Made by a program: the position numbers and the translations under genes. From a virus (lineage: Duplodnaviria; Heunggongvirae; Uroviricota; Caudoviricetes): a DNA stretch of 64,000 nt. Of this stretch, positions 31,274-53,463 are shown piece by piece. The first letter of the stretch is position 1; each line of letters opens with the position of its first letter. The DNA is taken from the IMG/VR virus record IMGVR_UViG_3300028886_000047; one strand, given 5' to 3'. The notes below the pieces were generated by a model that was not told the DNA's origin, searched no databases, and was given only the letters and a program-made list of their open reading frames with translations.

Positions 31274-32716
31274 TTATTTATTTGTATTTACAGGAATTTC
31301 TCCTTTAATATCATAATTCTTATTTACCTTAGCATCGTATGTTTCAGCTTTCATTATATCAGACATATCAACTCCTGTTGCAGATTTAACTACATCAAAT
31401 GTTTGTTTGATAACAGCAGGAACATTTCCAGATACTGTAGAAGCATCTCCGCCATATATATTCATGTTATCAATAGCACTAATTGGCTTAGCAACACTCT
31501 CGGCAACATTAGGAAGAATCTTGGTAATCATTTCAATGACAGCTGCACTACCATACTTCTTGAATGCTTCAGCCTTCTTTTCCATTGCTTGAGCCTCAGC
31601 AAGACCCTTAAGCTCAATTGCTTTAGCTGAAGCTTCACCTGTCTGTGCTATTTTATAAGCTTCTGCCTCTGCTTCTGCCTTAATACCTATAGCCTTCTGC
31701 TCATAAGAATATCTTTCTGCCTCTGCCTTTCTTTTTGCCAATTCCAAATCAGCTTCTGCCTTCTTAGAAATTGCATACTTATCAGCATCTGCTTTCTTGT
31801 TAACCTCTGCTTCTAATTTATTCTGCATAACTTTAACTTGTTCTGCAGCAAGCTCCTGCTCCTTTTGAGTTCTAATAATCTGAGCCTCAACAGTTCTGGT
31901 ATTTACTTCCTTTAACTGCTGCTGTTTCTGAATTTCATAAGCTGCATCAGCAATAGCTTTCTTTGTATCACTTTCTTTCTTTAAATCTGCTTTCTTTATT
32001 AACAGTTCATTCTGTCTTTCTGCAATCTGAGTTTCAGAGAGTACTTGAGCATCATTAGCAAGTTTTGCATTTTCTGCTGCAACTATTGCAATTTCCTTCT
32101 GTGCAATAGCTTTGGCGTTAGCTGCTTCTTTCTTAATCTTCCAAGTGTTATCAGCACCCATATTCTCAATAAGGCCTTGTTCATCAGTAACATTTTGAAT
32201 ATTACATGACAAGATAGAAATTCCTAACTTCTCCATATCTTTTTGAGCTTTATCCTGAACATTATTTGAGAAAGCATCTCTGTCATTATTAAGAGATTTT
32301 AAATCTACTGTGCCAATAATCTCTCTCATATTACCTTGCAGAGAATCTTTTAATTGTGTAGCAATTTGAGTAACATTCATATTCAAGAAATTCTTTGCAG
32401 CTAATCTAATTCCAGCTAATGTATTAGTAGGAGCTACTTTAGCAACAGCATCTACTTTTACATTGATAAAGTCTTTAGTCGGAACAGGGACATCTGTCTT
32501 AATGTCAACAGTAATCTGCCCAAGATATAGCTTATCAAGTCTTTCAAAGAATGGAATCTTAAATCCACCCTTTCCAATAAGAATACGAGGTTCTTTACTA
32601 AGTCCTGCTATTATGTAAGCCACGTTAGAAGGAGCTTTTACATAAGAAGCAAAGAATAAAACTACTAACAAAATTGCAACAACTGCAATAGCAATAAACA
32701 TTAAATTAATTGTCAT
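31274..32716 (-). CDS. SPFH/band-7 flotillin-like membrane protein (N-terminal TM helix, SPFH domain, Ala/Glu-rich coiled-coil repeats)
   Basis: Hydrophobic N-terminus FIAIAVVAILLVVLFFA. C-terminal AEAEAEAYKIAQ...AEAQAMEKKAEAF repeats are typical of FloT/YqiK-type flotillins. Confidence 0.65.
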   Translation of the reverse strand: MTINLMFIAIAVVAILLVVLFFASYVKAPSNVAYIIAGLSKEPRILIGKGGFKIPFFERLDKLYLGQITVDIKTDVPVPTKDFINVKVDAVAKVAPTNTLAGIRLAAKNFLNMNVTQIATQLKDSLQGNMREIIGTVDLKSLNNDRDAFSNNVQDKAQKDMEKLGISILSCNIQNVTDEQGLIENMGADNTWKIKKEAANAKAIAQKEIAIVAAENAKLANDAQVLSETQIAERQNELLIKKADLKKESDTKKAIADAAYEIQKQQQLKEVNTRTVEAQIIRTQKEQELAAEQVKVMQNKLEAEVNKKADADKYAISKKAEADLELAKRKAEAERYSYEQKAIGIKAEAEAEAYKIAQTGEASAKAIELKGLAEAQAMEKKAEAFKKYGSAAVIEMITKILPNVAESVAKPISAIDNMNIYGGDASTVSGNVPAVIKQTFDVVKSATGVDMSDIMKAETYDAKVNKNYDIKGEIPVNTNK

Positions 32717-33290
32717 AATACTCTTTTAATAAATTAATAACATTAGGATTAACATATCTGCTTAAATGCTCATCTGAATAATGAGCATCCATTTTATTTC
32801 TAGTTCTTAATATTTCTCTAATTCGAGTAGACGATATAGAATTTGCTGGCCTATCACATATTAGAAAATTATAATCTTGAATTATTGCTTCACCATTCAT
32901 CCAATCTGGAATATCCTTAATAGTATCTTCTCCACACAAAATATATATTTCATCATTACAATATTTATTCTTTAAAGCATGGAGAGTAGCATAACTATAA
33001 TAAGGTGGAATAAGTTCTTTTTCTATTAGAGAAATTAATAAATTAGATTCTATTTCGAAATCATTATCAAAAGTATATGGAAAAAATATTTCATTTCTCT
33101 CAATTAAACTATTAATAATAATTAAAACCCTTTTATTAATATCAAGAACTTCCTCCTTTTTCCAAGGATTTTGCATTGTTGGAACAATAATTACTTCATC
33201 CATTTTAAAGTCATTTAAAGCAGTTTTAACACACTCTAAATGACCATTATGAAATGGATTAAATGAACCAAGATATAATGCAATTTTCAT
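32706..33290 (-). CDS. nadD: nicotinate-nucleotide (NaMN/NMN) adenylyltransferase, NadD family
   Basis: GSFNPFHNGH (HxGH nucleotidyltransferase motif) and the C-terminal ISSTRIR motif of NadD. Confidence 0.7.
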   Translation of the reverse strand: MKIALYLGSFNPFHNGHLECVKTALNDFKMDEVIIVPTMQNPWKKEEVLDINKRVLIIINSLIERNEIFFPYTFDNDFEIESNLLISLIEKELIPPYYSYATLHALKNKYCNDEIYILCGEDTIKDIPDWMNGEAIIQDYNFLICDRPANSISSTRIREILRTRNKMDAHYSDEHLSRYVNPNVINLLKEYYDN

Positions 33291-33418
33291 ACTGGAAAAC
33301 CTGTAGAAGCAAGTTTTACCTTTTCTTCTAACTGTTTAATTTTCTCATCTTGTTCCTTTTGGTGATTTTCTAATTCTTCAATTCTTTTAAGAATTAATTG
33401 TTCTTCTCTATAAGTCAT
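33287..33418 (-). CDS. small coiled-coil ORF (43 aa), ATGA-coupled to nadD
   Basis: ATG 33418 to TGA 33287-33289. Overlaps the nadD start by 4 nt. Below the track size cutoff. Confidence 0.3.
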   Translation of the reverse strand: MTYREEQLILKRIEELENHQKEQDEKIKQLEEKVKLASTGFPV

Positions 33419-33441
33419 CTTATATTAAATTTAAAATGATT

Positions 33442-33636
33442 TTATAAAATGTCATTATCGTAAATAGAAATACCTTCTTTAACAATAATTATTTTTTTAT
33501 TACAATCTGGACAAATTATCCAACAATTTCCATGAGGACGTTTTTCACATATAACATCTCCTTGTACATATTGTAACTTAGCCTTACAACTTGGACAAAT
33601 AACTGTTCTTATTCCGTGTTCTAATACTTTAATCAT
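33442..33636 (-). CDS. small zinc-ribbon protein (two CxxC pairs)
   Basis: CPSCKAK...CPDCNKK. Confidence 0.4.
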   Translation of the reverse strand: MIKVLEHGIRTVICPSCKAKLQYVQGDVICEKRPHGNCWIICPDCNKKIIIVKEGISIYDNDIL

Positions 33637-33851
33637 ATTAAATCTTTAATGTTCTCCAAATACCTTAATTCAGATTCATTTGTAGCTGTTTCTATTTGAT
33701 AATCAAGTAATGACTGAGCTATATTTAAAAGATAACATTTTTCTTCATCTGACATTGCATCATTTACTTGAGTATCTTTAATAAAGTCTCTTAATCGTAT
33801 AGCAAATGTTACATCATTTACTATACGATTATCTTTAATAGGATTATTCAT
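33633..33851 (-). CDS. hypothetical protein
   Basis: Track ORF, same strand, 4-nt overlaps with both neighbours. Confidence 0.4.
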   Translation of the reverse strand: MNNPIKDNRIVNDVTFAIRLRDFIKDTQVNDAMSDEEKCYLLNIAQSLLDYQIETATNESELRYLENIKDLI

Positions 33852-33973
33852 TTCTTTTTAAATTGATTAAATATATCCTCAAATCCTGGAGGTAAATCGT
33901 AAGAATTACCTTGATTTTTAATTTTATAATTTATTTCAGCCATTATTCGCTGAAACTCTTCATATCCTGTCAT
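33848..33973 (-). CDS. small ORF (41 aa)
   Basis: ATG 33973 to TGA 33848. Fills the gap, with ATGA overlaps at both ends. Confidence 0.25.
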   Translation of the reverse strand: MTGYEEFQRIMAEINYKIKNQGNSYDLPPGFEDIFNQFKKK

Positions 33974-34164
33974 AGCCACTTAGTTGTAGTACATGTTACT
34001 CTCCAATCATTTGGATTAAATGTTTTGTCTGTTAAGGTATAAGGTTTAAAACCTATTTCTGGATATTTATAATTTGAATAATCATCTTGAAGCAATGTTG
34101 TAGCTTCTTCTAAAGATAATCTATTTTCCTTAAATGCTTTTAAAATAATTTCTGTTTTAGTCAT
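33970..34164 (-). CDS. hypothetical protein
   Basis: Track ORF. Confidence 0.4.
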   Translation of the reverse strand: MTKTEIILKAFKENRLSLEEATTLLQDDYSNYKYPEIGFKPYTLTDKTFNPNDWRVTCTTTKWL

Positions 34165-34852
34165 AAATAGATAAATATAAAGGTTTAAATTTCATCTTAT
34201 ATTGTTCATTTAATAAAGATACACAAGCAGTTTGTGTTCCATTATAATCTACAACTTCATGGTCACAAGTATGAAGATGTCCAAAAAAATGGTATTTAGG
34301 ATGTTTAGTTTTCAATACTTCTGCTAATTCTGGGTTGCCAATATGAGAACCATCTGCCCACCACACTGACTTATCAAGAATTACATCACTTCTACCATAA
34401 GCAGCGTCATGAGTAATTAAAAAATCTAAATTATCAGGAATCTTCTCAAATTGCTCAAGTTCATATTCTGGACTCATCATAAAAGCCCAATCCCCAAATG
34501 TATGACATAAAGGAGAGCCCCAAATTTTATATTCCTTACCTGTATTTAAATCTATAAAAGAAGCTCCTTCATTATTTAAAATAATGATATTAGTATTTCT
34601 GACAGCTTCTTTACATAAATCCATCCAAGCTTCACCTAGTAGATCGTGATTGCCGAATACCATGTAAATAAAATCTACTGGTTGGTTTTTACACCATGGA
34701 ATAAATACTTCTTTAAACCATTTGAAAGATTGTGGAATGTTCCGCTGTATTCGCAACGGAACAATATCTCCACAAATAAATAATATATCACTTTCTTCTA
34801 TAGACAATCCTTCAAACTGTCCATGAATATCGCTTATAGCACATATTTTCAT
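34157..34852 (-). CDS. calcineurin-like metallophosphoesterase
   Basis: ISDIHG...CGDIV...GNHD motif series. Confidence 0.6.
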   Translation of the reverse strand: MKICAISDIHGQFEGLSIEESDILFICGDIVPLRIQRNIPQSFKWFKEVFIPWCKNQPVDFIYMVFGNHDLLGEAWMDLCKEAVRNTNIIILNNEGASFIDLNTGKEYKIWGSPLCHTFGDWAFMMSPEYELEQFEKIPDNLDFLITHDAAYGRSDVILDKSVWWADGSHIGNPELAEVLKTKHPKYHFFGHLHTCDHEVVDYNGTQTACVSLLNEQYKMKFKPLYLSIYD

Positions 34853-34973
34853 ATATTTAATATATATTTTGCTAATTTTACTTCGTTATCTGACCCTGTA
34901 TGCTTTACTACAGCAACAGAGCGGGAAATCCAATATTCCCGCCCTGTTTCTTTATCAATTATTGGAAAATTTT

Positions 34974-35549
34974 TCATATTGTTATTAATCCATTTTCTTC
35001 TATAAAATTATTTAATATTGTACCATCATCAATAGAAACAATTCCATCTAAGTACAGTTTAGGAGAAATGCCAACATCTAGGAGATTTTGAGTAGTTTCT
35101 TTTACACAATAATCTCCAGCAATTCCACACACTATAAAATCATTATTAGCATTTACAGTAGCTATGGAATCTAAATAATATCTTTCTCCAAATTCATCTT
35201 GACAGTATTCAATGTCAGAAAATGCTCCATATTCTTCAACTTCTTCAATTTGACCTTTAGGAACTACTTCAAAATCTATTTCCAAAGAATGAATAAATTT
35301 CAGTAATTTTGGTTCAATACATGCTCCAGGTGTAAACTGTACACAGTGAGATGGCCAGATTCCACCACTTCTTTTAAAAGACATGTGATTGTAAGGATGC
35401 CAATCTACAGTAAGAATAATTTTTTCAATATTCTTTTTGTTATTAGAAATAAATTCTTTGATATTAGCTACTATATTAGAGGCTCCTTTTACCTTCATTG
35501 TTCCGCTAATAAAATCATTTTGACAATCTACAATAATTAAAGTAATCAT
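34974..35549 (-). CDS. pncA: nicotinamidase/pyrazinamidase (PncA), isochorismatase-like hydrolase
   Basis: VDCQNDF (catalytic Asp), DWHPYNHMSF plus WPSHCVQFTPGA (metal-binding His/Asp), VPKG...YGAFSD (catalytic Lys region), GIAGDYCVKETT (catalytic Cys). Confidence 0.65.
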   Translation of the reverse strand: MITLIIVDCQNDFISGTMKVKGASNIVANIKEFISNNKKNIEKIILTVDWHPYNHMSFKRSGGIWPSHCVQFTPGACIEPKLLKFIHSLEIDFEVVPKGQIEEVEEYGAFSDIEYCQDEFGERYYLDSIATVNANNDFIVCGIAGDYCVKETTQNLLDVGISPKLYLDGIVSIDDGTILNNFIEENGLITI

Positions 35550-35625
35550 AAAAATTTGTTTTTAAAAGTTGAAGAAATTATATTTAAAAATATTATGAAA
35601 AATATGATGAATATTATAAATTCAA

Positions 35626-36192
35626 TCATTTCATTCCTTTAATTCGTTGAACAAATAAATCTGTTTTCTTGTCTCTTTTCGGAACTGTGAAAATTCCTTC
35701 AGTATGTTCTCTTAAATATTTAAAAAGATTTTCATTGTGTTCTGGGAACCATATTCCAGGCCAAAATAGATAACAGTGATAAACATTCCAATACTTTTTA
35801 ACTGCTTCCTTTACAGAAGTATTTCCGTTCATTCCTGCAATAACTATTTCATTGGATTCAGAATATTTTATGTTCTTTTCAACTGTGTTCCAAGATACAC
35901 ATATTTCATACGGAATTTTCAATCTCCATAAGAGCTTAAGAATTGTTGGTTCGATACAAGCTCCTGGAGTCCATTGAACACAATACATAGGATAATCTCC
36001 TCCATTTCGTTTAAAATATTCTTCATAAGGACTATTTAAAACGCACTTAAAGATAACCTTTTCAATATCTTCTTTATTTCGATTTATCCAAATCTTAGTA
36101 CGTTCAACAGCTTCTTTGCCACGTTTTTTCACTGACATGGAACCTGTTACAAAGTCAAGTTGGTCATCTACTAATAAAAGAATTTTACTCAT
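35626..36192 (-). CDS. PncA-like paralog lacking catalytic Lys/Cys and metal ligands (probable pseudo-enzyme)
   Basis: Alignable to 34974..35549 (VDDQLDF, CVQWTPGACIEP retained). DWHP becomes KCVLNS, HCV becomes YCV, VPKG is lost, GDYCV becomes GMNGNTSV. Confidence 0.5.
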   Translation of the reverse strand: MSKILLLVDDQLDFVTGSMSVKKRGKEAVERTKIWINRNKEDIEKVIFKCVLNSPYEEYFKRNGGDYPMYCVQWTPGACIEPTILKLLWRLKIPYEICVSWNTVEKNIKYSESNEIVIAGMNGNTSVKEAVKKYWNVYHCYLFWPGIWFPEHNENLFKYLREHTEGIFTVPKRDKKTDLFVQRIKGMK

Positions 36193-36679
36193 GTTGTAAT
36201 GATTTAACAGTTTCTGAAATTAATTTTCCATCTGCTGTGGGATAAATTTCTTTAACTGACTTAATAACTTTACCCATTTCCTTTTGAGTAAACCCATTTG
36301 GATACAATCCATAGACAGCCTCTTGGATTTTCTCTTTAGAAATTTCTGGAGGGAGAAGTTCTTTTAGATATTTCATTTGTTCTTTATACATATCCGCCAA
36401 GTCTTTACGACTATTAGCTTCATACATAGAAACTTGTTCTTCTCTTTCCTTAATTAATTTTCTAATAATCGAAAGGTCTAATTCATTTATCCAAATTTCA
36501 ACCTCGGTAGCAGGGTCTTCAAATACTCTAAATTTAAATCCTGTAAGTTGTTTGCCTTCAGGTTTAGGTTTTTTAGAAGAATTATTTAAAAGTAATTCAG
36601 CTTTAATAGCTCTATAAGCCTCTTTAGCAGCTCCGTTCTTTTCTAAAGTTGCTATTTTAATTAGTTTGTCTATATCCAT
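36185..36679 (-). CDS. GatB/YqeY-domain protein
   Basis: C-terminal ...MGKVIKSVKEIYPTADGKLISETVKSL resembles the YqeY family. Confidence 0.4.
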   Translation of the reverse strand: MDIDKLIKIATLEKNGAAKEAYRAIKAELLLNNSSKKPKPEGKQLTGFKFRVFEDPATEVEIWINELDLSIIRKLIKEREEQVSMYEANSRKDLADMYKEQMKYLKELLPPEISKEKIQEAVYGLYPNGFTQKEMGKVIKSVKEIYPTADGKLISETVKSLQHE

Positions 36680-41263: not shown

Positions 41264-41923
41264 TCAATGCACCCAGAAGGTAGGCAATTCCCCATTAGGT
41301 AGTCTTGAAATATCTGCAGAAAGAAGCACTCTAGTACAGAACGGCTTAGCTCCTTTCTCCATACATTGTCGGAGTACTGATGCTACTTCTTCTGCAATAG
41401 AATCAGGAGCTTCTACATTCCATTCATCATGACATTGCAGACATATTAAAACTTTATTTTGATAATTATTTTTTAATATCCATTTAAAGAATAATATGCC
41501 TGACAATTTTGTTGCCATTGCTCCTCTATTTTGTATTCTGTAATTAATAGAATCTTTTTGAATATCTGTTTTAAATTTATTCCATTGTCCTAGCCAATAC
41601 ACTTCTTTACTATAAGGGTCATCACTTTTCATACTTTGATATGCTTCCCACCATCCAGGTTGACTTGTAAAATCTCTAATAGCTTTCCATTTATTGTCCC
41701 AATCTTCTATATGTGCTCTATGTCCAGTTACTGGATTCATTAAAATATATCCACGTTTTATTACCTCTTTACGACAATAATCTTGATATTTTTTAACTCC
41801 AGGGAAACCTTTCATATAAGAATCATAAATTTCTTTAGCTTCCTTTGGGTCTAGGCCATTGTTTTGTACCATAGTGGAATCATTTCCTCCGTAATTTATT
41901 GCGACAAATAGATATAACAACAA
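41264..41923 (-). CDS. polA: family A DNA polymerase, C-terminal part (rest of motif B AINYGG, motif C LQCHDEW)
   Basis: ...FVAINYGGNDSTM continues motif B, which is broken at the end of ORF 43034..44710. HDE motif C is present. Confidence 0.7.
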   Translation of the reverse strand: MLLYLFVAINYGGNDSTMVQNNGLDPKEAKEIYDSYMKGFPGVKKYQDYCRKEVIKRGYILMNPVTGHRAHIEDWDNKWKAIRDFTSQPGWWEAYQSMKSDDPYSKEVYWLGQWNKFKTDIQKDSINYRIQNRGAMATKLSGILFFKWILKNNYQNKVLICLQCHDEWNVEAPDSIAEEVASVLRQCMEKGAKPFCTRVLLSADISRLPNGELPTFWVH

Positions 41924-43045
41924 AATATCTATCGGACTATCTCATAACCATATACTTATAAGTACTTAGGTCCGGAATGCTTAAACTGGTTATTAAGAGA
42001 CTAAATCTCTCCAGTAGTCTCTGCACCTCTCGAAGTTGTATCTTCGATTTGGCTCATGGTTGGCCCTGACACTGCTTTCCATGAATTCGTTCCGTTTGCA
42101 TAAGAGAGTTTCCAACTCTTAGGAGCTCGTTTTAAATAAATACCTTTATATGGTGTTCCATCAGTACAATGATTAGCTATTTTACTTGGGTCCAATGTTT
42201 TTCTACCATTAGACCTTAATTTTAAAGGTAAATCATTATATTCCGATTTACTATATTCCACTAAATCTGATGTACACCAAAAAGTATTTAGCCAGTTTTT
42301 ATTTATATCATATACAACAATATATGCTGACCTATCTTTTATTTTTTGAGCATTATTCATATGTACTGCTTTCATAGCAGCACTTACTCCATTTTTTTTA
42401 GGCTTACGCATATTTTTCGTTTGTTCTTCGGTCATTTTTATTCCTTTATTCCAGGCTTTCATGCCTTTATAATAACCTCTTTTTTCGGAATATTCTTTAA
42501 TAAATTGTTCGTATTCTTCCGGAGAAAGTTCCTCTTTTTTCTTTCTCCACCATTCTTTATGTGTTATAGAACTTTTTTCACAAGAAGAAATATTTAACAT
42601 TGGAGAAAAATTTGGATTTGGATTTTCATTATAACCATTATTATAACTATCAAACTTTTCTATATAAAAAGCTTCTCTATCCAATAAAATATTTTTATCT
42701 TCTATTATCTCCAATATTTCACAAACAAAACAATCAGTTCCGAACTCATTCCAATCTTGTTGTAATGATTTACAATGATGTTTTTGTGTCTTTAATTTTG
42801 ACACATGTTGTTTAAATCTTGACATAAATGATTTCCAAGTACTTCCAACATATACCATATTGTTTTTAGTATTGTAAATCCTATAAATGCCTTTTAATTT
42901 TAAATTGTCAATTTCTTCTGATTTAATTTTTACTTTCATAATATTTTTATTTTAATTCCAAATAAAAATATTAATTTAAGGCATAAAACAAAAGGCATTT
43001 ATATTTAATTTATGTTAAAATTTGTTTTGTCATTTACTCAATGGA
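41924..43045 (-). mobile_element. insertion interrupting polA at motif B: putative group I intron (or free-standing HEG cassette) carrying a GIY-YIG endonuclease
   Basis: Exon 1 reads ...YRQAAK then stops after SIE. Exon 2 resumes ...AINYGG. A 312-aa GIY-YIG ORF with its own start lies between, with ~80-90 nt untranslated flanks. Confidence 0.45.
42001..42939 (-). CDS. GIY-YIG homing endonuclease (standard code)
   Basis: N-terminal KGIYRIYNTKNNMVYVGSTWKSFMSRFKQH is the GIY-(x10)-YVG motif. It sits inside polA. Confidence 0.7.
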   Translation of the reverse strand: MKVKIKSEEIDNLKLKGIYRIYNTKNNMVYVGSTWKSFMSRFKQHVSKLKTQKHHCKSLQQDWNEFGTDCFVCEILEIIEDKNILLDREAFYIEKFDSYNNGYNENPNPNFSPMLNISSCEKSSITHKEWWRKKKEELSPEEYEQFIKEYSEKRGYYKGMKAWNKGIKMTEEQTKNMRKPKKNGVSAAMKAVHMNNAQKIKDRSAYIVVYDINKNWLNTFWCTSDLVEYSKSEYNDLPLKLRSNGRKTLDPSKIANHCTDGTPYKGIYLKRAPKSWKLSYANGTNSWKAVSGPTMSQIEDTTSRGAETTGEI

Positions 43046-44710
43046 TTTGGCAGCTTGTCTGTATTGTTTATATTTTTTAGGTATTTCAGATATAGGAGTA
43101 TCTCTTGGAATTGCTTTTGGGTATGACATGTAAGCTACTAACGCATGCATATCAGCACATTCTCCAGGATCGTATATATGTAACATAGCAGCATCATTAG
43201 CTACAGATGCTAGAACACGACTTTCTTGCGATTGAAAATCTTCTGAAATCCATTTATTACCTTTTTCAGATATAAAACAAGCTCTAGTCTCAGCTTTTCT
43301 TGGAATTTGTTGACAATTTACTCCAGACTCTCCTCCCCCACTACTTAATCTAGCTGTAGCGGTACCTAGTTGATGAAAATCGGCATGTATTCTACCTGTT
43401 ACTGGATTAATTGCCTTTAACCAATTTTCTCCAAAAGAATCACAAACTTTAGAAGCTTCTTTGAATTTTACATAAGCATCAGCTAGTTCTGGACATACAT
43501 TTCGCTGAGATTTAATGGTATCAGAATCAGTAGACTTTTTCTTTTGTTTAGTCTTTTTATCAAAGGTATCAAGTTTAAACCCCAATAATTCAAAAAATGG
43601 AATTGTTTGTTTTGGACTTTTCCAATTTATGTTACAAAATGGAGTTGGATCAAATTCTTGAAACAAATCCATCTGTAAATTTTGTTCTATATAAGGAAAA
43701 GGAACTTCAACTTCTTCGCAATAAAGAGTTCCTACATCTTCTATGCCAGAATCTCTGGTATAATACTTTTTAAATTTTTTGGCTGGCGGAAATAATTTTA
43801 TATTATATTTTTTAAGGTCTTCTTCATCATGAAGCCATTGCGTATCTAAAACGTGTTCTACAACTATTGTTTTAAACCTAATATTTCCTTGATGTTCATT
43901 AAAATATTTAAGAACAAAATCATTTAATTTTTTAGAGGCTTCTTTTTGCTTGTCCTTATCCTTAGCCATTTTAGCTTTCCACTTTTCTACGTCAAGTTTA
44001 ACTCCACAAAATTCTATATAAGCAAGGACTTTAACAAATTCGTTTTCTAAATCTACTGCTTTTTGAAGTTCCTCTCTATCAATATCCTTTTGTTGAGATT
44101 CCTTAATGTCTTCCAGATACATTACATCTGTGGCAGCATACTGCACAACTTCTGGAGTTAATCCAACTGTTTTAATTCGACCTCTGACAGTTTTATCTAG
44201 TTCTATTCCCAGTCTGTTTTTTCCAACAGCTTTTAAAGAGCAACTAATTTCATAATAAGGTTCTTTAGTTTGTTTATTTTCTTTTTGCAAATATGGAAAT
44301 GAATATCCTTCATTAACATACTCACGTGGAGGAATAGGCCTACGACTATATCCAAGCCAAATTAACTGTTCAGCTAACATAGTATCATATACATGTTTAG
44401 GCCATATATCATAGTAATATAAATATTTTAAATCAAAAGCTGCGTTATGAAATATAAATAAACGTTCTGACTCAAAAAATTCTTTAAAAAGTTTTATAGA
44501 ATAAGAGGACTGATCAAATACATATTGATTTTCTTTATTTCCTAGTTGATAACATAATAAAGGCTTAGTATAGACATCTAATCCCATTGTTTCAGTATCA
44601 ACCTGAATGACTTCTAGTTTTTCTAATGCTTCTTTGGCTTCATCAAAAGAAATTTCCTTATATAAATCAGTTTCAAAGAGTTGCTTTTGATTACTTATAA
44701 GAAATATCAT
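43034..44710 (-). CDS. polA: family A DNA polymerase, N-terminal part: 3'-5' exonuclease (Exo I VDTET, Exo II NAAFD, Exo III YAATD) plus palm with motif A DFQSQESRVLA and start of motif B RQAAK
   Basis: Motifs seen directly in the translation. Confidence 0.8.
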   Translation of the reverse strand: MIFLISNQKQLFETDLYKEISFDEAKEALEKLEVIQVDTETMGLDVYTKPLLCYQLGNKENQYVFDQSSYSIKLFKEFFESERLFIFHNAAFDLKYLYYYDIWPKHVYDTMLAEQLIWLGYSRRPIPPREYVNEGYSFPYLQKENKQTKEPYYEISCSLKAVGKNRLGIELDKTVRGRIKTVGLTPEVVQYAATDVMYLEDIKESQQKDIDREELQKAVDLENEFVKVLAYIEFCGVKLDVEKWKAKMAKDKDKQKEASKKLNDFVLKYFNEHQGNIRFKTIVVEHVLDTQWLHDEEDLKKYNIKLFPPAKKFKKYYTRDSGIEDVGTLYCEEVEVPFPYIEQNLQMDLFQEFDPTPFCNINWKSPKQTIPFFELLGFKLDTFDKKTKQKKKSTDSDTIKSQRNVCPELADAYVKFKEASKVCDSFGENWLKAINPVTGRIHADFHQLGTATARLSSGGGESGVNCQQIPRKAETRACFISEKGNKWISEDFQSQESRVLASVANDAAMLHIYDPGECADMHALVAYMSYPKAIPRDTPISEIPKKYKQYRQAAKSIE

Positions 44711-45709: not shown

Positions 45710-46029
45710 TGTTTTGTGTGCATAAATTCATATAAAAAGTTAGAAAAAGTTTGAGCCATTTCCTCAGAAAATTCAGTATTATAATACCATTGAAAAGAAT
45801 GAATTAGTTCGTGATAAAATGTTCTTTCCATATCTTCATCAGTCTGGTCATATACTTCATTTTCTTCCTCAACTTTTCTACCCAACTCTATCTCATTTCT
45901 TGCCGGAGAAAAATCTCCAAATCTGCCATCCTCTAATATATCTTTCTGAATAACTTTAATAGTTTTTCCACCTGCTATTTTAAACTCATTTGGAATATTC
46001 ATAATAATGACTTTAAAGTTTTTCCACAC
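45706..46029 (-). CDS. small HExxH metallopeptidase-like protein (YHELIHSF)
   Basis: A single HExxH motif. Located immediately downstream of the sigma factor gene. Confidence 0.3.
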   Translation of the reverse strand: MWKNFKVIIMNIPNEFKIAGGKTIKVIQKDILEDGRFGDFSPARNEIELGRKVEEENEVYDQTDEDMERTFYHELIHSFQWYYNTEFSEEMAQTFSNFLYEFMHTKQ

Positions 46030-46838
46030 CTTTGACGTAATTTTTTAATTGCGTTCTTTCTTAATTGTCTAACTCTTTCTTCTCCCAGATTTAAATCTTT
46101 TGCTATTTCTTTAATAGGTTTCTCTACTCCCTCTAATCCATAAAAAAGTATTATAACTTCTTTTTCTTTCGGAGTTAATATAGAAAGAGTATCTAAGATT
46201 GTAGAACGGTTAAAATTATCAATGATGTTAGAATTTTTATCTGGAATTATATCACTTAAAGTACATTTCTCGTCTAATAGTATTGGAGTATCAAGAGATT
46301 GAATATAAGACCTATTAACAATAGTAGCTTTATATTGATTTTCTGTAAAATCAGTTAATTCGATAATTTCCTCTGGGGTAGGTTCTCTACCATTTTTAGT
46401 CACAAAATTCTCTATAACCTTTTTAGACTTCGATAATTTACTTATATAAGTTATTGGATATCGAATTGTTCTACTAGTATTATAAATTTCTTTTAGAATT
46501 TCTCTTCTAATGTACCATACTGCAAAACTTAAAAATTTATATCCTTTATCGGGATTAAATTTATCTAAACTTTGAATTAGTCCACATACTCCACAATCAA
46601 TCAAATCGACGAGTGGAACTCCTTGATTCACATATTTTTTAGCACAAGTTATAATAAACCTTAAATTACTATTTACTAATTTGTCTTGTGCTTTTAAATC
46701 TCCATTTTTAGCTTTTCGAGCTAATTCAATCTGTTCCTCACTAGAAAGTATTGGATAGCGAGAAATATCTTTAAATAATACTTTTAATATATCTGAATTT
46801 TCATTTAATATATTTTTAGATATTTTTATTTCCTTCAT
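45999..46838 (-). CDS. sigma-70 family RNA polymerase sigma factor (regions 2 and 4 present, no region 1)
   Basis: Region 2: ...LRFIITCAKKY...LVDLIDCGVCGLIQSLDKFNPDKGYKFLSFAVWYIRREI. Region 4.2: IAKDLNLGEERVRQLRKNAIKKLR. Confidence 0.7.
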   Translation of the reverse strand: MKEIKISKNILNENSDILKVLFKDISRYPILSSEEQIELARKAKNGDLKAQDKLVNSNLRFIITCAKKYVNQGVPLVDLIDCGVCGLIQSLDKFNPDKGYKFLSFAVWYIRREILKEIYNTSRTIRYPITYISKLSKSKKVIENFVTKNGREPTPEEIIELTDFTENQYKATIVNRSYIQSLDTPILLDEKCTLSDIIPDKNSNIIDNFNRSTILDTLSILTPKEKEVIILFYGLEGVEKPIKEIAKDLNLGEERVRQLRKNAIKKLRQRCGKTLKSLL

Positions 46839-47403: not shown

Positions 47404-48663
47404 TTAGTCATTTGGCATATCTTCTTCAATTCTTAAACTAGATACAGATGGTTGTAGAGGTGTTCCATCATCAGAAAGATAGAAATATTTTACAGTAGCA
47501 TAGTGATTCAAACACTCTTCTTCAAAATTATTAACATACCAGTCTTTTAAATCTCTATCTCCATGAGGCTTAGCTTTAAATTCAATTCCATCTTTTGTAA
47601 TAAGATTAAAAACCATATCTTCATTGCCTCTTAATCCAAGTTCATAACCTGTTATCAGGAACTCTGAAGATTTGTATTTTTTAATCTTAATCATATCATT
47701 CGATCTCCCGTTAGGTTTATAAACTTTACTAGGATCTCTAATTACTACTCCTTCCCAACCTTCAGATACATATTCATTATGTAAATTCATAATATTATCC
47801 CATCCACTAATCTTTATTTGAGGAACAAATTGAAGACGAAGTTCTCCACTGGAAAACTCTCTTTCTGGATTAAAGGTAATACTATATTGTTCGGCAATTT
47901 GTTTCATTTTAGATAACCTATCTTCAAAAGAAGAATTAATATCTAAAATATCATACCAATAGAATTGTAAAACTTCATAATCGACAGCTTTCTTTTGTGT
48001 ACGAGCAACAGAATTAAGTTGTTGTAGACTCATTCCATGGTGATAACATTCTCCATCAAGTATAAGTCCTGGGTTAGCTTTAAATATATCGATTAGAGTT
48101 TTATTGGAAAGAATTTCATACATAGCAGCATCATAATTCATAGCACCACGAGACTGAGTATGAAGTTCTCCATCTGTTCCCATATAAATCAAAGCTCGAA
48201 GTCCATCAATTTTGCGAGAAGCATACCACTCCTTATCAAATATTTTCATATTTGTAACTTTTTCACTTTGCTTAGCAAGCATTGGTTTAGGAACTCCATC
48301 TTGATTTGTTACTACTTCTCCAATGATATTATTTAATTCCTCTTCAGAATATGTTTCTGGGTCTCGTTCAATTTCTCTATAACCTTTATCAAGTTTTTCT
48401 TTAACTAAATGCTTAGCTTCAAGGTCAACTTGCTGCCAAAGATTGCGAGAAGCTTTCCCTCGTTCTACATATTTAGTAGGCTGTTCAGTAATTTTTCCAT
48501 GAAGTTGGCCTGAATATCTATAGATTTCAAACCAACGTTCACCCGTTTTTTCATCATTAACTAAAGAATAACTTATCTCTACTGTTCTGATTTTTCCTTT
48601 CGTATCTCGACTTATTAAATACCAAGTTCGTTCGTCTGGAATCCTTTCAAATAAATCATCCAT
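47404..48663 (-). CDS. lig: ATP-dependent DNA ligase (nucleotidyltransferase motif I KIDGLR, motif III/IV LILDGE, motif V GWEGVVIRD...KIKK)
   Basis: Motifs seen in the translation. Confidence 0.7.
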   Translation of the reverse strand: MDDLFERIPDERTWYLISRDTKGKIRTVEISYSLVNDEKTGERWFEIYRYSGQLHGKITEQPTKYVERGKASRNLWQQVDLEAKHLVKEKLDKGYREIERDPETYSEEELNNIIGEVVTNQDGVPKPMLAKQSEKVTNMKIFDKEWYASRKIDGLRALIYMGTDGELHTQSRGAMNYDAAMYEILSNKTLIDIFKANPGLILDGECYHHGMSLQQLNSVARTQKKAVDYEVLQFYWYDILDINSSFEDRLSKMKQIAEQYSITFNPEREFSSGELRLQFVPQIKISGWDNIMNLHNEYVSEGWEGVVIRDPSKVYKPNGRSNDMIKIKKYKSSEFLITGYELGLRGNEDMVFNLITKDGIEFKAKPHGDRDLKDWYVNNFEEECLNHYATVKYFYLSDDGTPLQPSVSSLRIEEDMPND

Positions 48664-51147: not shown

Positions 51148-53463
51148 TCATGAACATTTAGTATAGCCACATAACACACATTCATTACATCCTCCAATAT
51201 GAGTCAATCCCTTCTGATGACATTCGGGACATTCTTCATATTCTGGATAAATTATTTCATGGCTTTTAATAGGACTTTCACATTCATTAGGAATACAATT
51301 ATGTATTCTTTCAAGAACTTCTTTATGCATATCTTTTAATGCAATTCCAACAGCTGTTGGACAACAAGCTCCTTTAGAAGTATCTTTCTTTGTAGCAGTA
51401 CGAACTGCATAAGATGGACAAACTCCACATGAATTAAGTTGATCTATAATTGCATCTATAGAAAGGCCTCCTCTTGCTGCAAGACTAATCATTCGTGAAA
51501 GACCAATCATAAAGTTTTGACATCCACCCTTAGAACCTTTACTAAGATATGTTTCTCTTAACTCTCCAGTAATAGAATCGAAGTAAGCGGTGCAATGTAA
51601 TGTTCCGCAGCCTGTTGTTAAGGTACGTTTGAGTCCAATACAGGTATCATCAGCTTTTACTACAAATCCTCTTGGAAGTTCATCATGTATAGCTTCTAAT
51701 TGAATGGGTTCTTCTACCTTTTCAGGTTTATCTGTTGTAAGAATACCTTCTCTTTTACATCCAGAACGATATACAGTTACTCCTTTTAATCCTCTTTCCC
51801 AAGCTTCAAGATATATATTATATACATCTTCTATTGTTGCTTTATTTGGAAGATTTATTGTAGAACTTATTGAAGCATCTGTATAGTTTTGTAAAGCAGC
51901 TTGTACTTTAATTCTATCAATTGGATTAATATCAGCAGACGTTACAAAGTAGTCAGGAAGTTTAACGTCTCCTGTAATCTTCTTATAATCTTCAACAATT
52001 TTAGAATCTACTTGATAATAAGTATCTCCTCCATTTAAAGATTGTGTTTTTCTTGTGTAGGATAGAGCGAAATAAGGTTCCAACCCAGTGCTGGTTTCAA
52101 GCATGGTTCCAATTGACCCAGTAGGCGCGCACGTAAGAAGCTGAGAGTTATATAATCCATAATCAGCAATCTGTCCTAATACAGATGCTGGAAGATTTAA
52201 TGCTTTAATAAAAGAAGAATTAATTAATTTTTCTTTATTACATTTTGGATAACATCCATGCTCCCTAGCAAGTGCCAATGATTCATATACTGCGTCGACA
52301 GCAATAGTTTTGTAAACTTCTTTAATTAAATTAATTGATTCTTCGCTACCATATTTTATGCCGAGTTTTATTAGCATCTCAGCAAGACCCATTGTACCTA
52401 ATCCGATTTGTCTCCAATCTCTAACAGTTTCTTGTTGTATAGAAAGTGGATGTAAAGTGAGTCCTTCAATAAGAACTTGATTCAAAGCCCTAGTTGCACC
52501 AATAACAGCTGTTTCTAAGGCATACCAATTGATACTAGCGTTCTTAGTAAATGGGTTGTCAACAAACATTCCAAGATTTATACTACCTAATAAACAGCTC
52601 CCTCCGGCTGGAAGAGGCTCTTCACTACAGGGATTGACTCCAGCATACTTAAATTCTTCTACATTATCAAGCATGTTATATTCTTCAATACGATTCCAAT
52701 ATAAAATGCCTGGTTCTGCATAATTCCAATTATTCTCTGCTAATTTCTTAAACAATTTAACTGGATTTACTATTTTATAATATACTCCATCTACTTCGTG
52801 AAGTTCTCCTTCTTTCCAGTCTAATGTATTGAATTCAGATTCGCATTTATCACATGGCCAAGATAATATATATCTATTAATTCCACGTTTTACAGCGTTC
52901 ATAAAATCATCTGTCACTCTAACAGATATATTAGCATATTTTATACGCTCTAAATCAGTCTTACAATCAATAAATTCTTCTATATCAGGATGATTAACAC
53001 TTAAAGAAATCATTGTTGCTCCGCGGCGGCCGTTCTGGCTTATTGTCTGAGTAACTTGACTATATAAATCCATAAAAGAGACTGGACCAGTGGATTCTTT
53101 AGCAGCATTGTGGGTAGTAGCTCCTCTAGGACGAAGATTACTTAGGTCTATTCCAACTCCGCCTCCATAACTAAATGTACGAGCCATTTGTTTAGCACAT
53201 TCAAGTATTGATTCCAGATTATCTTCAGGAGCTGGAAGTACATAACAATTACTTAAAGAACCTTTTTTACCCTTAATTCCTCTATTAGCAAGTATTCTAC
53301 CTCCAAAAATAAACTTTTTGGAGCGAATTAATTCCTTTATATCCTCTTGTCCTACACAAATTCTATCTAAAAATTCTTCAAAAGATTCATCTTCATTACG
53401 ATATTTTTTATTCCAAATATCTAATGATAATTGATTTCCATTTAACCATTCTTTTTCTGTCAT
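51148..53463 (-). CDS. nrdJ: ribonucleotide reductase large subunit, class II (adenosylcobalamin-type, NrdJ-like) with C-terminal Cys-rich zinc-ribbon tail
   Basis: GGGVGIDLSNLRPRGA...TGPVSFM and NPCSEEPLP...GSCLLGSINL match the class I/II active site. No R2 (NrdB) gene is nearby. C-terminal CPECHQKG...CNECVLCGY. Confidence 0.7.
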   Translation of the reverse strand: MTEKEWLNGNQLSLDIWNKKYRNEDESFEEFLDRICVGQEDIKELIRSKKFIFGGRILANRGIKGKKGSLSNCYVLPAPEDNLESILECAKQMARTFSYGGGVGIDLSNLRPRGATTHNAAKESTGPVSFMDLYSQVTQTISQNGRRGATMISLSVNHPDIEEFIDCKTDLERIKYANISVRVTDDFMNAVKRGINRYILSWPCDKCESEFNTLDWKEGELHEVDGVYYKIVNPVKLFKKLAENNWNYAEPGILYWNRIEEYNMLDNVEEFKYAGVNPCSEEPLPAGGSCLLGSINLGMFVDNPFTKNASINWYALETAVIGATRALNQVLIEGLTLHPLSIQQETVRDWRQIGLGTMGLAEMLIKLGIKYGSEESINLIKEVYKTIAVDAVYESLALAREHGCYPKCNKEKLINSSFIKALNLPASVLGQIADYGLYNSQLLTCAPTGSIGTMLETSTGLEPYFALSYTRKTQSLNGGDTYYQVDSKIVEDYKKITGDVKLPDYFVTSADINPIDRIKVQAALQNYTDASISSTINLPNKATIEDVYNIYLEAWERGLKGVTVYRSGCKREGILTTDKPEKVEEPIQLEAIHDELPRGFVVKADDTCIGLKRTLTTGCGTLHCTAYFDSITGELRETYLSKGSKGGCQNFMIGLSRMISLAARGGLSIDAIIDQLNSCGVCPSYAVRTATKKDTSKGACCPTAVGIALKDMHKEVLERIHNCIPNECESPIKSHEIIYPEYEECPECHQKGLTHIGGCNECVLCGYTKCS

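Follow-up and report, generated by a model that had tools for sequence, protein, structure and literature searches.

A putative pseudo-nicotinamidase is conserved beside a canonical nicotinamidase in an eroded NAD+ salvage locus of a crAss-like phage

Introduction

Why would a phage keep a second copy of a nicotinamidase gene whose product appears to have lost its active site, directly beside a copy that looks intact? This question is raised by a locus in the IMG/VR virus record IMGVR_UViG_3300028886_000047 (Caudoviricetes), of which a stretch of 64,000 nucleotides, referred to here as the window, was analyzed. Three genes of the locus are at issue: one for a NadD-like adenylyltransferase (32706..33290) and two for paralogs of the nicotinamidase PncA, named PncA-1 (34974..35549) and PncA-2 (35626..36192). 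All three open reading frames (ORFs) lie on the minus strand, begin with ATG and end with TAA or TGA. An original prediction made from this DNA had read them as a cluster for the salvage of nicotinamide adenine dinucleotide (NAD+), with one active and one dead PncA.

Three phage NAD+ reconstitution pathways (NARPs) have been tested, namely NARP1 (Adps and Namat), NARP2 (Nampt and Nmnat) and NARP3 (PnuC and NadR). Genes of another route, the Preiss-Handler pathway, have been annotated in jumbo phages (PMC11662467) and gut phages (PMC11780533), without counter-defence tests. In addition, small phage proteins such as Tad1, Tad2, Acb2 and RyDEP neutralise NAD-derived immune signals, and the RyDEP family has both catalytic and sequestering members.

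We consider it very probable, as one joint description, that the locus represents an eroded Preiss-Handler module for NAD+ salvage within a standard-code minus-strand block of a Crassvirales-like (crAss-like) gut phage, that it encodes a functional-looking nicotinamidase (PncA-1, nicotinamide to nicotinate) and a functional-looking nicotinate mononucleotide (NaMN) adenylyltransferase, and that PncA-2 is a tandem duplicate of phage PncA-1 which is found only in phages, is confined to a narrow clade and is kept by purifying selection. What PncA-2 does is much less certain, and its possible roles are weighed in the Discussion.

Results

The two paralogs were compared with cellular nicotinamidases and with each other. 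PncA-1 (191 amino acids, aa) matched the Pfam family Isochorismatase (PF00857) with 42.4 bits against a cutoff of 27 and the P. horikoshii PncA structure 1ilw at 1.4e-21. Its triad D8/K98/C148 aligned with D8/K96/C138 of the M. tuberculosis enzyme and D10/K94/C133 of the P. horikoshii enzyme, and the metal ligands D49, H51, H55 and H68 were all present in the same alignment. F13, W65 and Y107 are also retained, and A144 stands at the oxyanion/cis-peptide position. In the 129 closest homologs the Lys, the Cys and the three His are conserved throughout (100%), the Asp in 128 of 129. An AlphaFold2 (AF2) model of PncA-1 had a predicted local distance difference test score (pLDDT) of 82, and its top eight Foldseek matches were all nicotinamidases (1e-9 to 4e-8). 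The score against the NCBIfam equivalog PRK11609 (84.5) was below the cutoff of 174, which indicates a divergent member of the nicotinamidases. The protein is acidic, with an isoelectric point (pI) of 4.5, and its family is large (823 clusters at E 1e-10 or better).

PncA-2 (188 aa) shares 30% identity with PncA-1 (BLASTP, E 1e-24), while no Pfam or NCBIfam family matched it. Only the catalytic Asp (D9) is retained. At the metal site D49, H51 and H68 of PncA-1 correspond to V51, N53 and Y70 of PncA-2, and at the catalytic positions K98 and C148 are replaced by S100 and S126. These losses were read from BLASTP, from a MAFFT alignment with reference enzymes and from an alignment of the family profile to the PDB; the profile alignment to 1ilw agreed independently on the lost metal ligands. 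A hairpin of 26 residues with the substrate-contacting Tyr is deleted, and nothing corresponds to W65 and Y107, the residues by which real PncAs hold the pyridine ring. The same losses extend through 42 PncA-2 orthologs. Nine residue types occur at position 51, His never occurs at position 53, and position 70 holds Phe, Tyr or rarely His. The former Lys position 100 holds eight residue types and never Lys, and the former Cys position 126 is Ser (50%), Thr, Gly or Met and never Cys.

The fold, in contrast, appears to be kept. The AF2 model of PncA-2 reached a pLDDT of 84 and a predicted template modeling score (pTM) of 0.83, with the caveat that the input alignment included five sequences of the PncA-1 type. 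Its top Foldseek match was again PncA 1ilw, at a template modeling (TM) score of 0.64–0.67, and Foldseek searches of the PDB and BFVD returned isochorismatase-fold proteins only. By strand and helix register, S100 and S126 of this model occupy the places of K98 and C148 in the PncA-1 model. A loop at about residues 50–78 has low confidence; it is low in the model of the active PncA-1 as well and is thus no sign of decay. Judged by these residues, PncA-2 is a true pseudoenzyme and should be unable to work as a nicotinamidase. Alignment to M. tuberculosis PncA therefore left the earlier reading of the pair intact: the first paralog had been said to keep the Asp/Lys/Cys triad and metal ligands, the second to have lost Lys, Cys and the metal site while keeping the fold.

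PncA-2 is nevertheless carefully conserved. The 42 orthologs are 56–98% identical, all are intact without a single frameshift, and 53 positions are invariant among them, including positions in a derived C-terminal tail. In seven genomes the ratio of nonsynonymous to synonymous substitution rates (dN/dS) was 0.10–0.40 for PncA-2 (mean identity 67%) and 0.19–0.62 for PncA-1 (mean identity 61%); these values are approximate, since the sequences are divergent and dS is near saturation. Along PncA-2, the ratio of nonsynonymous to synonymous polymorphism (pN/pS) was 0.96 for residues 50–59 and 0.90 for residues 96–115, and 0.24–0.37 for the remainder. Values of about 1 at only the two former catalytic loops indicate that these loops are neutral and that the rest is constrained. 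Positive selection in the variable loops was considered and rejected, as pN/pS is about 0.9–1.0 and does not exceed 1. A dead active site combined with such conservation means that the copy must have gained a new job.

Several conserved features of PncA-2 are derived. A basic helix, SVKKRGKE.VERTKI.INRNKEDI, is highly conserved; AGMNGNT replaces the Cys helix; the motif WPGxWFxxH[DN]E is likewise derived; and the protein ends in a conserved basic tail, GIFE[VI]PKR..K.DLFVQR.K. The tail was modeled with a pLDDT of about 89 at residues 171–180 and of about 73 at the very C-terminus. In all seven PncA-1/PncA-2 pairs the net charge is -6 to -14 for PncA-1 and +4 to +9 for PncA-2, amounting to a shift from about -10 to about +6, with a pI of 4.5–5.2 and 8.6–9.3, respectively; PncA-2 of the window has a pI of 9.1.

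The distribution of PncA-2 is narrow. A GTDB scan of 185,579 bacterial and archaeal species genomes gave no relative, so that no host can be assigned by this means. A profile search of 1.84 billion representative proteins gave one full-length PncA-2 and a few fragments of the C-terminal half. The remaining matches were mostly over the N-terminal ~100 residues, and a few lower-scoring, nicotinamidase-like ones extended further. A scan of IMG/VR with the PncA-2 profile gave genes of the PncA-1 type only, and these served as controls lacking PncA-2. A 586-nt metagenomic contig (P0041) encodes a chimeric protein, with an N-terminal half like PncA-1 (DWH and SHCV kept) and a C-terminal half like PncA-2 (AGMNGNTS and the basic tail). 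The tandem paralogs may have recombined naturally, or the chimera may have arisen in assembly.

Inactivated copies were also encountered elsewhere. Among 122 representative PncA homologs, about 13 have non-canonical triads. Five cases were found in related phage loci (named here by L and a number). The PncA homolog of L008 (9992-10552) has D8N, Lys replaced by Leu and Cys by Ser; that of L010 (6411-6974) has Cys replaced by Ser; and that of L023 (459-1034) has D8N, D49Q, H51R, Lys replaced by Tyr and no Cys. In all three the metallophosphoesterase gene described below is the sole companion, and the rest of the pathway is absent. The other two cases are PncA-1 proteins, with K98R in L013 (10616-11173) and C148T in L020 (10583-11146). 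Ser or Thr stands in for the nucleophile in L008, L010 and L020; of the five proteins, only that of L023 has lost the metal ligands. As far as these residues tell, phage PncA homologs have lost catalysis repeatedly and independently while their ORFs stay intact.

The third gene encodes a NadD-like protein of 194 aa. It matched Pfam CTP_transf_like (PF01467) with 62.9 bits against a cutoff of 21, and its best PDB matches were all NaMN adenylyltransferases, with B. subtilis NadD (1kam) at 3.8e-15. The translation contains GSFNPFHNGH, in which HNGH is residues 14–17, and ISSTRIR at about residues 151–157, in agreement with the earlier assignment to NadD by HxGH and ISSTRIR. The 1kam alignment covers FNPFHNGH (residues 10–17), and ISSTRIR falls only in a weak second segment. 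With 93.1 the protein scored below the cutoff of the NCBIfam equivalog TIGR00482 (112.45), which points to a divergent NadD-family member. Orthologs terminate the complete clusters of L005, L006, L007, L012, L016 and L024. Since orthologs co-occur with PncB and NadE, the protein probably prefers NaMN over nicotinamide mononucleotide (NMN).

To what extent the locus forms a pathway became apparent from its relatives. A complete cluster, YqeY-(PncA-2)-PncA-1-NUDIX-PncB-NadE-NadD-SPFH, is present in L012, L016, L024 and L005 to L007. One relative with the complete cluster is ENA ERZ842377 NODE_3. In L012, L016 and L024 the order is PncA-2, PncA-1, NUDIX, a small ORF, PncB, NadE and NadD, set between the YqeY-like and SPFH genes. 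The PncB of the relatives scored 381 bits against an NCBIfam equivalog cutoff of 269, and NadE 103 against 64. In the window, PncB, NadE and NUDIX were not found by Pfam scans or by tblastn with the relatives' genes (E 1e-4), nor were they found in ~10 kb past its right end. As the relatives carry these genes at the same locus, the locus is best described as an eroded module. The window would thus provide steps 1 and 3 of the Preiss-Handler route, and PncB and NadE would have to come from the host. The designation as a NAD+ salvage cluster holds for the kind of locus, but only the PncA and NadD steps are encoded in the window. A search for PncB, NadE, Nampt or an ADPR-pyrophosphokinase (Adps) elsewhere in the genome, proposed earlier, returned none of them from the window (for Nampt and Adps, from the 29 minus-strand ORFs scanned), whereas relatives encode both PncB and NadE at this very position.

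Erosion has gone to different lengths in other genomes. L018 has a 30-aa remnant of NadE. L020 has no PncB, a truncated NadD and the C148T substitution in PncA-1, and L026 has a frameshifted NadD. In L013 only the two PncA genes remain, and PncA-1 carries K98R. Retention was tallied over the nine genomes that carry PncA-2. PncA-2 was intact in all of them (9/9). A PncA-1 ORF was likewise always present (9/9), with its metal ligands in 9/9 and with canonical residues in 6/9. NUDIX was retained in 6/9, PncB in 5/9, NadE in 4/8, and NadD was intact in 5/8. PncA-2 lies directly upstream of PncA-1 in eight of the nine genomes; in L014 a phosphoesterase gene stands between them.

Four relatives (L005, L006, L007 and L011) have the cluster without PncA-2. 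In these, the slot between YqeY and PncA-1 is filled by a hydrophobic ORF of ~60 aa, probably a membrane protein, at ~9280-9484 in L005 and ~9790-9991 in L006, L007 and L011. Remnants of PncA-2 were not found in the YqeY-PncA-1 gap of these genomes. The slot therefore alternates between two unrelated cassettes.

The immediate neighborhood of the three genes, all on the minus strand, was annotated as follows. A YqeY-like gene with a GatB_Yqey domain (36185..36679; Pfam PF09424, 1.8e-15; PHROG name 'tRNA amidotransferase') precedes PncA-2, with an overlap of 8 nt between its stop and the start of PncA-2. A YqeY homolog is found upstream of PncA-2, or of PncA-1 where PncA-2 is absent, in most related loci. 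Downstream of PncA-1 a calcineurin-like metallophosphoesterase of 231 aa is encoded (34157..34852; Pfam PF00149, 1.9e-12), with DxH, GD, GNHD and GHLH motifs. Its orthologs adjoin PncA genes in L008, L009, L010, L014 and L023, and its closest solved relative is MPPED2 (PDB 3rl4, 4.7e-12). MPPED2 is cyclic-nucleotide phosphodiesterase-like, and one may speculate that the phage protein acts on ADP-ribose (ADPR) or cyclic nucleotides. Three small ORFs follow (33442..34164), of 64 aa, 72 aa (phrog_24038) and 64 aa (a zinc ribbon), which fill the stretch where relatives have NUDIX, PncB and NadE. The description of the locus as three neighbouring genes thus fits the adjoining PncA-2 and PncA-1, but NadD is separated from PncA-1 by the metallophosphoesterase gene and the three ORFs of 64–72 aa. 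Beyond NadD, an SPFH/flotillin-like membrane protein of 480 aa (31274..32716; Pfam Band_7 2.4e-20, Flot 1.3e-7) overlaps the NadD end by 11 nt and closes the module on its downstream side, a boundary that is conserved. NadD is likewise followed by a Band_7 gene in L012, L016 and L024 and, after two small ORFs, in L018; L020 has one at the equivalent place despite the truncated NadD.

The window has a G+C content of ~29%, and its coding strand flips at ~30.2 kb. The minus-strand block with the locus also holds genes for DNA polymerase, ligase, ribonucleotide reductase and a Thy1-like protein, and the locus protein is carried by a metagenomic contig of 117,654 bp (ENA ERZ27256887, k141_1258196). 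The DNA polymerase is 40–44% identical to those of the Bacteroides phages crAss001 and PhiCrAssBcn. GenBank phages gave only three weak DNA matches, none spanning the cluster, and tblastn with PncA-1 found only eight phage records, none of them close.

Some further observations concern the remainder of the window. On the plus strand, positions 1-30257 contain only two ORFs of at least 200 aa under the standard code (233 and 329 aa). With TAG read as sense, six ORFs of 416, 1162, 2907, 3635, 352 and 1638 aa emerge; recoding of TGA was of no help. The giant, presumably late, plus-strand ORFs appear to use TAG reassignment and the minus-strand genes the standard code. A search of the window for (suppressor) tRNAs gave none. 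Gene calls with the recoded table over-extend early genes on related contigs; a '217-aa' ORF of L012 is really 142 aa. GatB-type domains are tRNA binders, which makes a YqeY/GatB-type gene a curious find in a TAG-recoding phage. The family A DNA polymerase (41264-44710, minus strand) is split into a 558-aa piece, with the exonuclease and the N-terminal polymerase part, and a 219-aa C-terminal piece, separated by a gene for a 312-aa GIY-YIG homing endonuclease. In L020 a LAGLIDADG gene (faint Pfam match) lies between similarly split pieces; L013 has an undivided polymerase ORF of 741 aa. Also on the minus strand are a sigma-70-family factor with regions 1.2, 2, 3 and 4 (45999-46838), an ATP-dependent, not NAD-dependent, DNA ligase (47404-48663) and a ribonucleotide reductase with a C-terminal TSCPD domain (51148-53463).

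Discussion

Both paralogs share the isochorismatase-like fold with the cellular nicotinamidases of P. horikoshii (1ILW/1IM5), M. tuberculosis (3PL1) and yeast (Pnc1, 2H0R). PncA-1 has the full Asp-Lys-Cys triad and the Asp/His/His metal site of these enzymes, whereas PncA-2 is without the metal ligands, the Lys, the Cys, the Trp, the Tyr and the 26-aa hairpin and has in addition its basic C-terminal tail. The motifs FKRNGG and TPGACIEP are common to both phage paralogs and absent from the aligned M. tuberculosis and P. horikoshii PncAs. The NAD module itself is already known, as Preiss-Handler genes were annotated earlier in jumbo and gut phages; the novelty is the conserved dead paralog within it. 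Literature searches found no pseudo-nicotinamidase, no phage nicotinamidase with an anti-defence role and no conserved inactive PncA paralog, and the words nicotinamidase, PncA and isochorismatase occur neither in the NARP1/2 preprint nor in the Aravind survey of viral NAD systems. The suggestion that a PncA pseudo-enzyme had not been described as a component of such modules thus agrees with what these searches gave.

What might the module be for? The locus has its logic in common with NARP1 to NARP3, which during infection restore NAD+ from its precursors or from the products of its breakdown, and its adenylyltransferase step resembles the Nmnat step of NARP2. By this analogy the module may have a counter-defence role. 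Unlike the three NARPs, the phage locus runs via nicotinate and needs an amidation, and the NARPs are without a pseudoenzyme component. The enzymes are those of Preiss-Handler salvage (PncA-PncB-NadD-NadE), of which sister phages have all four plus NUDIX in one cluster; the window has PncA and NadD only.

It is quite conceivable, without being the probable outcome, that the module is ordinary auxiliary metabolism which supplies NAD+ for replication of a gut phage and has nothing to do with counter-defence. pncA, pncB, nadD and nadE are common metabolic genes of gut and jumbo phages (PMC11780533, PMC11662467), and the genes of the locus share their strand and block with those for DNA polymerase, ligase, ribonucleotide reductase and the Thy1-like protein. 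Furthermore, no experimentally defined NARP component is present: Adps, Namat, Nampt, PnuC and NadR were absent from the 29 minus-strand ORFs of the window that were scanned, the unscanned ORFs being at most 116 aa long or of known function. On the other hand, the substrates, nicotinamide and (for the NUDIX relatives) probably ADP-ribose, are products of the Sir2, TIR and SEFIR NADases, and NARP1, NARP2 and NARP3 show that rebuilding NAD+ is effective counter-defence. The phage ligase uses ATP, so that there is no obvious phage consumer of NAD+ in the window. Both purposes could be served at once.

For PncA-2 itself we tentatively favor, at somewhat below an even chance, a role as a non-catalytic partner or scaffold of PncA-1, as opposed to an enzyme or a nicotinamide sponge. 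This reading is preferred because PncA-2 constantly lies beside PncA-1, because the pair is retained together when the rest of the module is lost, and because the two proteins are of opposite charge. There is a class of pseudoenzyme partners to which PncA-2 can be likened: it, too, is a tandem duplicate beside the active copy, with the fold kept, catalysis lost and purifying selection acting. In the proposed scheme, NAD+ cleavage by host NADase immunity or other consumers would release nicotinamide, which would be handled by the PncA-1/PncA-2 pair. PncA-1 would convert nicotinamide to nicotinate, from which host PncB would form NaMN; phage NadD would turn NaMN into nicotinate adenine dinucleotide (NaAD), and host NadE would complete the rebuilding of NAD+.

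A number of points weigh against this role. Prokaryotic PncAs are often monomers. PncA-1 is as acidic in phages without PncA-2, and 37% of the proteins of this phage have a pI above 8; charge complementarity was considered as evidence for a heterodimer and, given this proteome background and the PncA-1 copies of genomes that lack PncA-2, was judged weak. PncA-2 is fully conserved where PncA-1 has lost catalytic residues (C148T in L020, K98R in L013), which fits a role independent of nicotinamidase activity. Among close relatives PncA-2 is patchy, at a slot that otherwise holds the small hydrophobic ORF, and such a pattern is typical of accessory or anti-defence genes. The approximate nature of the dN/dS values also counts here, as does the fact that PncB or NadE could lie in the remaining ~53 kb of the 117.7-kb genome.

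Some of these points speak for a stand-alone function, which ranks just behind the partner role and is nearly as likely, although taken by itself it remains doubtful. PncA-2 would then be a non-catalytic binder or inhibitor that acts through its remodelled basic surface and C-terminal tail. Candidate targets are a host NADase or immune protein, or an anionic NAD-derived molecule such as ADPR, isomers of cyclic ADPR (cADPR) or NaAD. Such a role comes near the earlier suggestion of a binder or sponge for nicotinamide or ADPR derivatives. In keeping with this role, PncA-2 has stayed intact in genomes with a decayed salvage pathway (L013, L020 and L026), it comes and goes at a fixed slot among close relatives, it is limited to phages of a narrow clade, and its charge has turned basic. 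Around the former cleft D9, Q11, D13 and F14 are invariant or nearly so, N122, N124 and W144-P145 are invariant, and H152 and E154 nearly invariant. The active and inactive PncA pair also parallels the catalytic and sequestering versions of RyDEP. Yet PncA-2 has no sequence or fold kinship with Tad1, Tad2, Acb2 or RyDEP, its ancestral pocket is degenerate, and Foldseek searches of the PDB and BFVD gave no similarity to known sponge families. Two of the four ancestral pocket loops evolve neutrally, W65, Y107 and all metal ligands are lost, and PncA-2 was never found without PncA-1 beside it. The evidence speaks in particular against a nicotinamide sponge built on the ancestral pocket, since two walls of the pocket drift neutrally and the residues that held the pyridine ring are gone.

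A wider version, which we regard as unlikely, would make PncA-2 the persistent core of the module, a nicotinamidase fold taken over as a non-catalytic anti-defence factor. It would neutralise a host NAD+-cleaving effector or an NAD-derived signal, either alone or together with PncA-1 copies that keep the metal site and tend to lose the nucleophile. This would explain why PncA-2 is intact in 9/9 genomes despite the repeated loss of PncB, NadE and NadD, and also the independent dead PncA homologs of L008, L010 and L023.

That PncA-2 is a neo-enzyme is improbable to a greater degree. Its cleft would have been rebuilt on D9, N122/N124/T125-S126 and H152-[DN]153-E154 for a new hydrolysis. Conserved polar residues do stand at the C-terminal ends of beta1, beta4 and beta5, as in active sites of the isochorismatase fold, and replacement of Cys by Ser or Thr recurs in the phage PncA homologs of L008, L010 and L020. 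The candidate nucleophile at position 126 is variable, however, and this lack of conservation makes a new enzyme unlikely; position 100 accepts eight residue types as well, the H-[DN]-E motif is absent in P0042, and no metal site is left. An Asp/Ser hydrolase of this fold without the Lys has no precedent in the literature search or, to our knowledge, elsewhere.

We give hardly any credence to PncA-2 as a functionless, decaying duplicate in a module that is a relic as a whole: the NadE remnant of L018, the truncated and frameshifted NadD of L020 and L026, the PncA-1 substitutions of L013 and L020 and the neutral former catalytic loops of PncA-2 would suit it, but they are opposed by the 42 intact orthologs free of frameshifts, by the invariant positions that include the derived tail, by dN/dS values that leave PncA-2 conserved at least as much as the active PncA-1, and by identities of 56–78%, which exclude a very recent clonal lineage.

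That phages counter NAD+-depleting immunity by rebuilding NAD+ is established. Only NARP1 to NARP3 have been tested, and the nicotinate (Preiss-Handler) route, which dominates in these abundant gut phages, is not among them. crAss-like phages are hard to study experimentally; the locus presents Preiss-Handler modules that grade naturally from complete to eroded at a single genomic site, and in them a conserved, phage-only pseudo-nicotinamidase outlasts the surrounding enzymes. If PncA-2 is a regulatory subunit, it would be a modest new example of a pseudoenzyme. Should its target be a host effector or an immune signal, PncA-2 would represent a new family of anti-defence proteins that descends from a metabolic enzyme.

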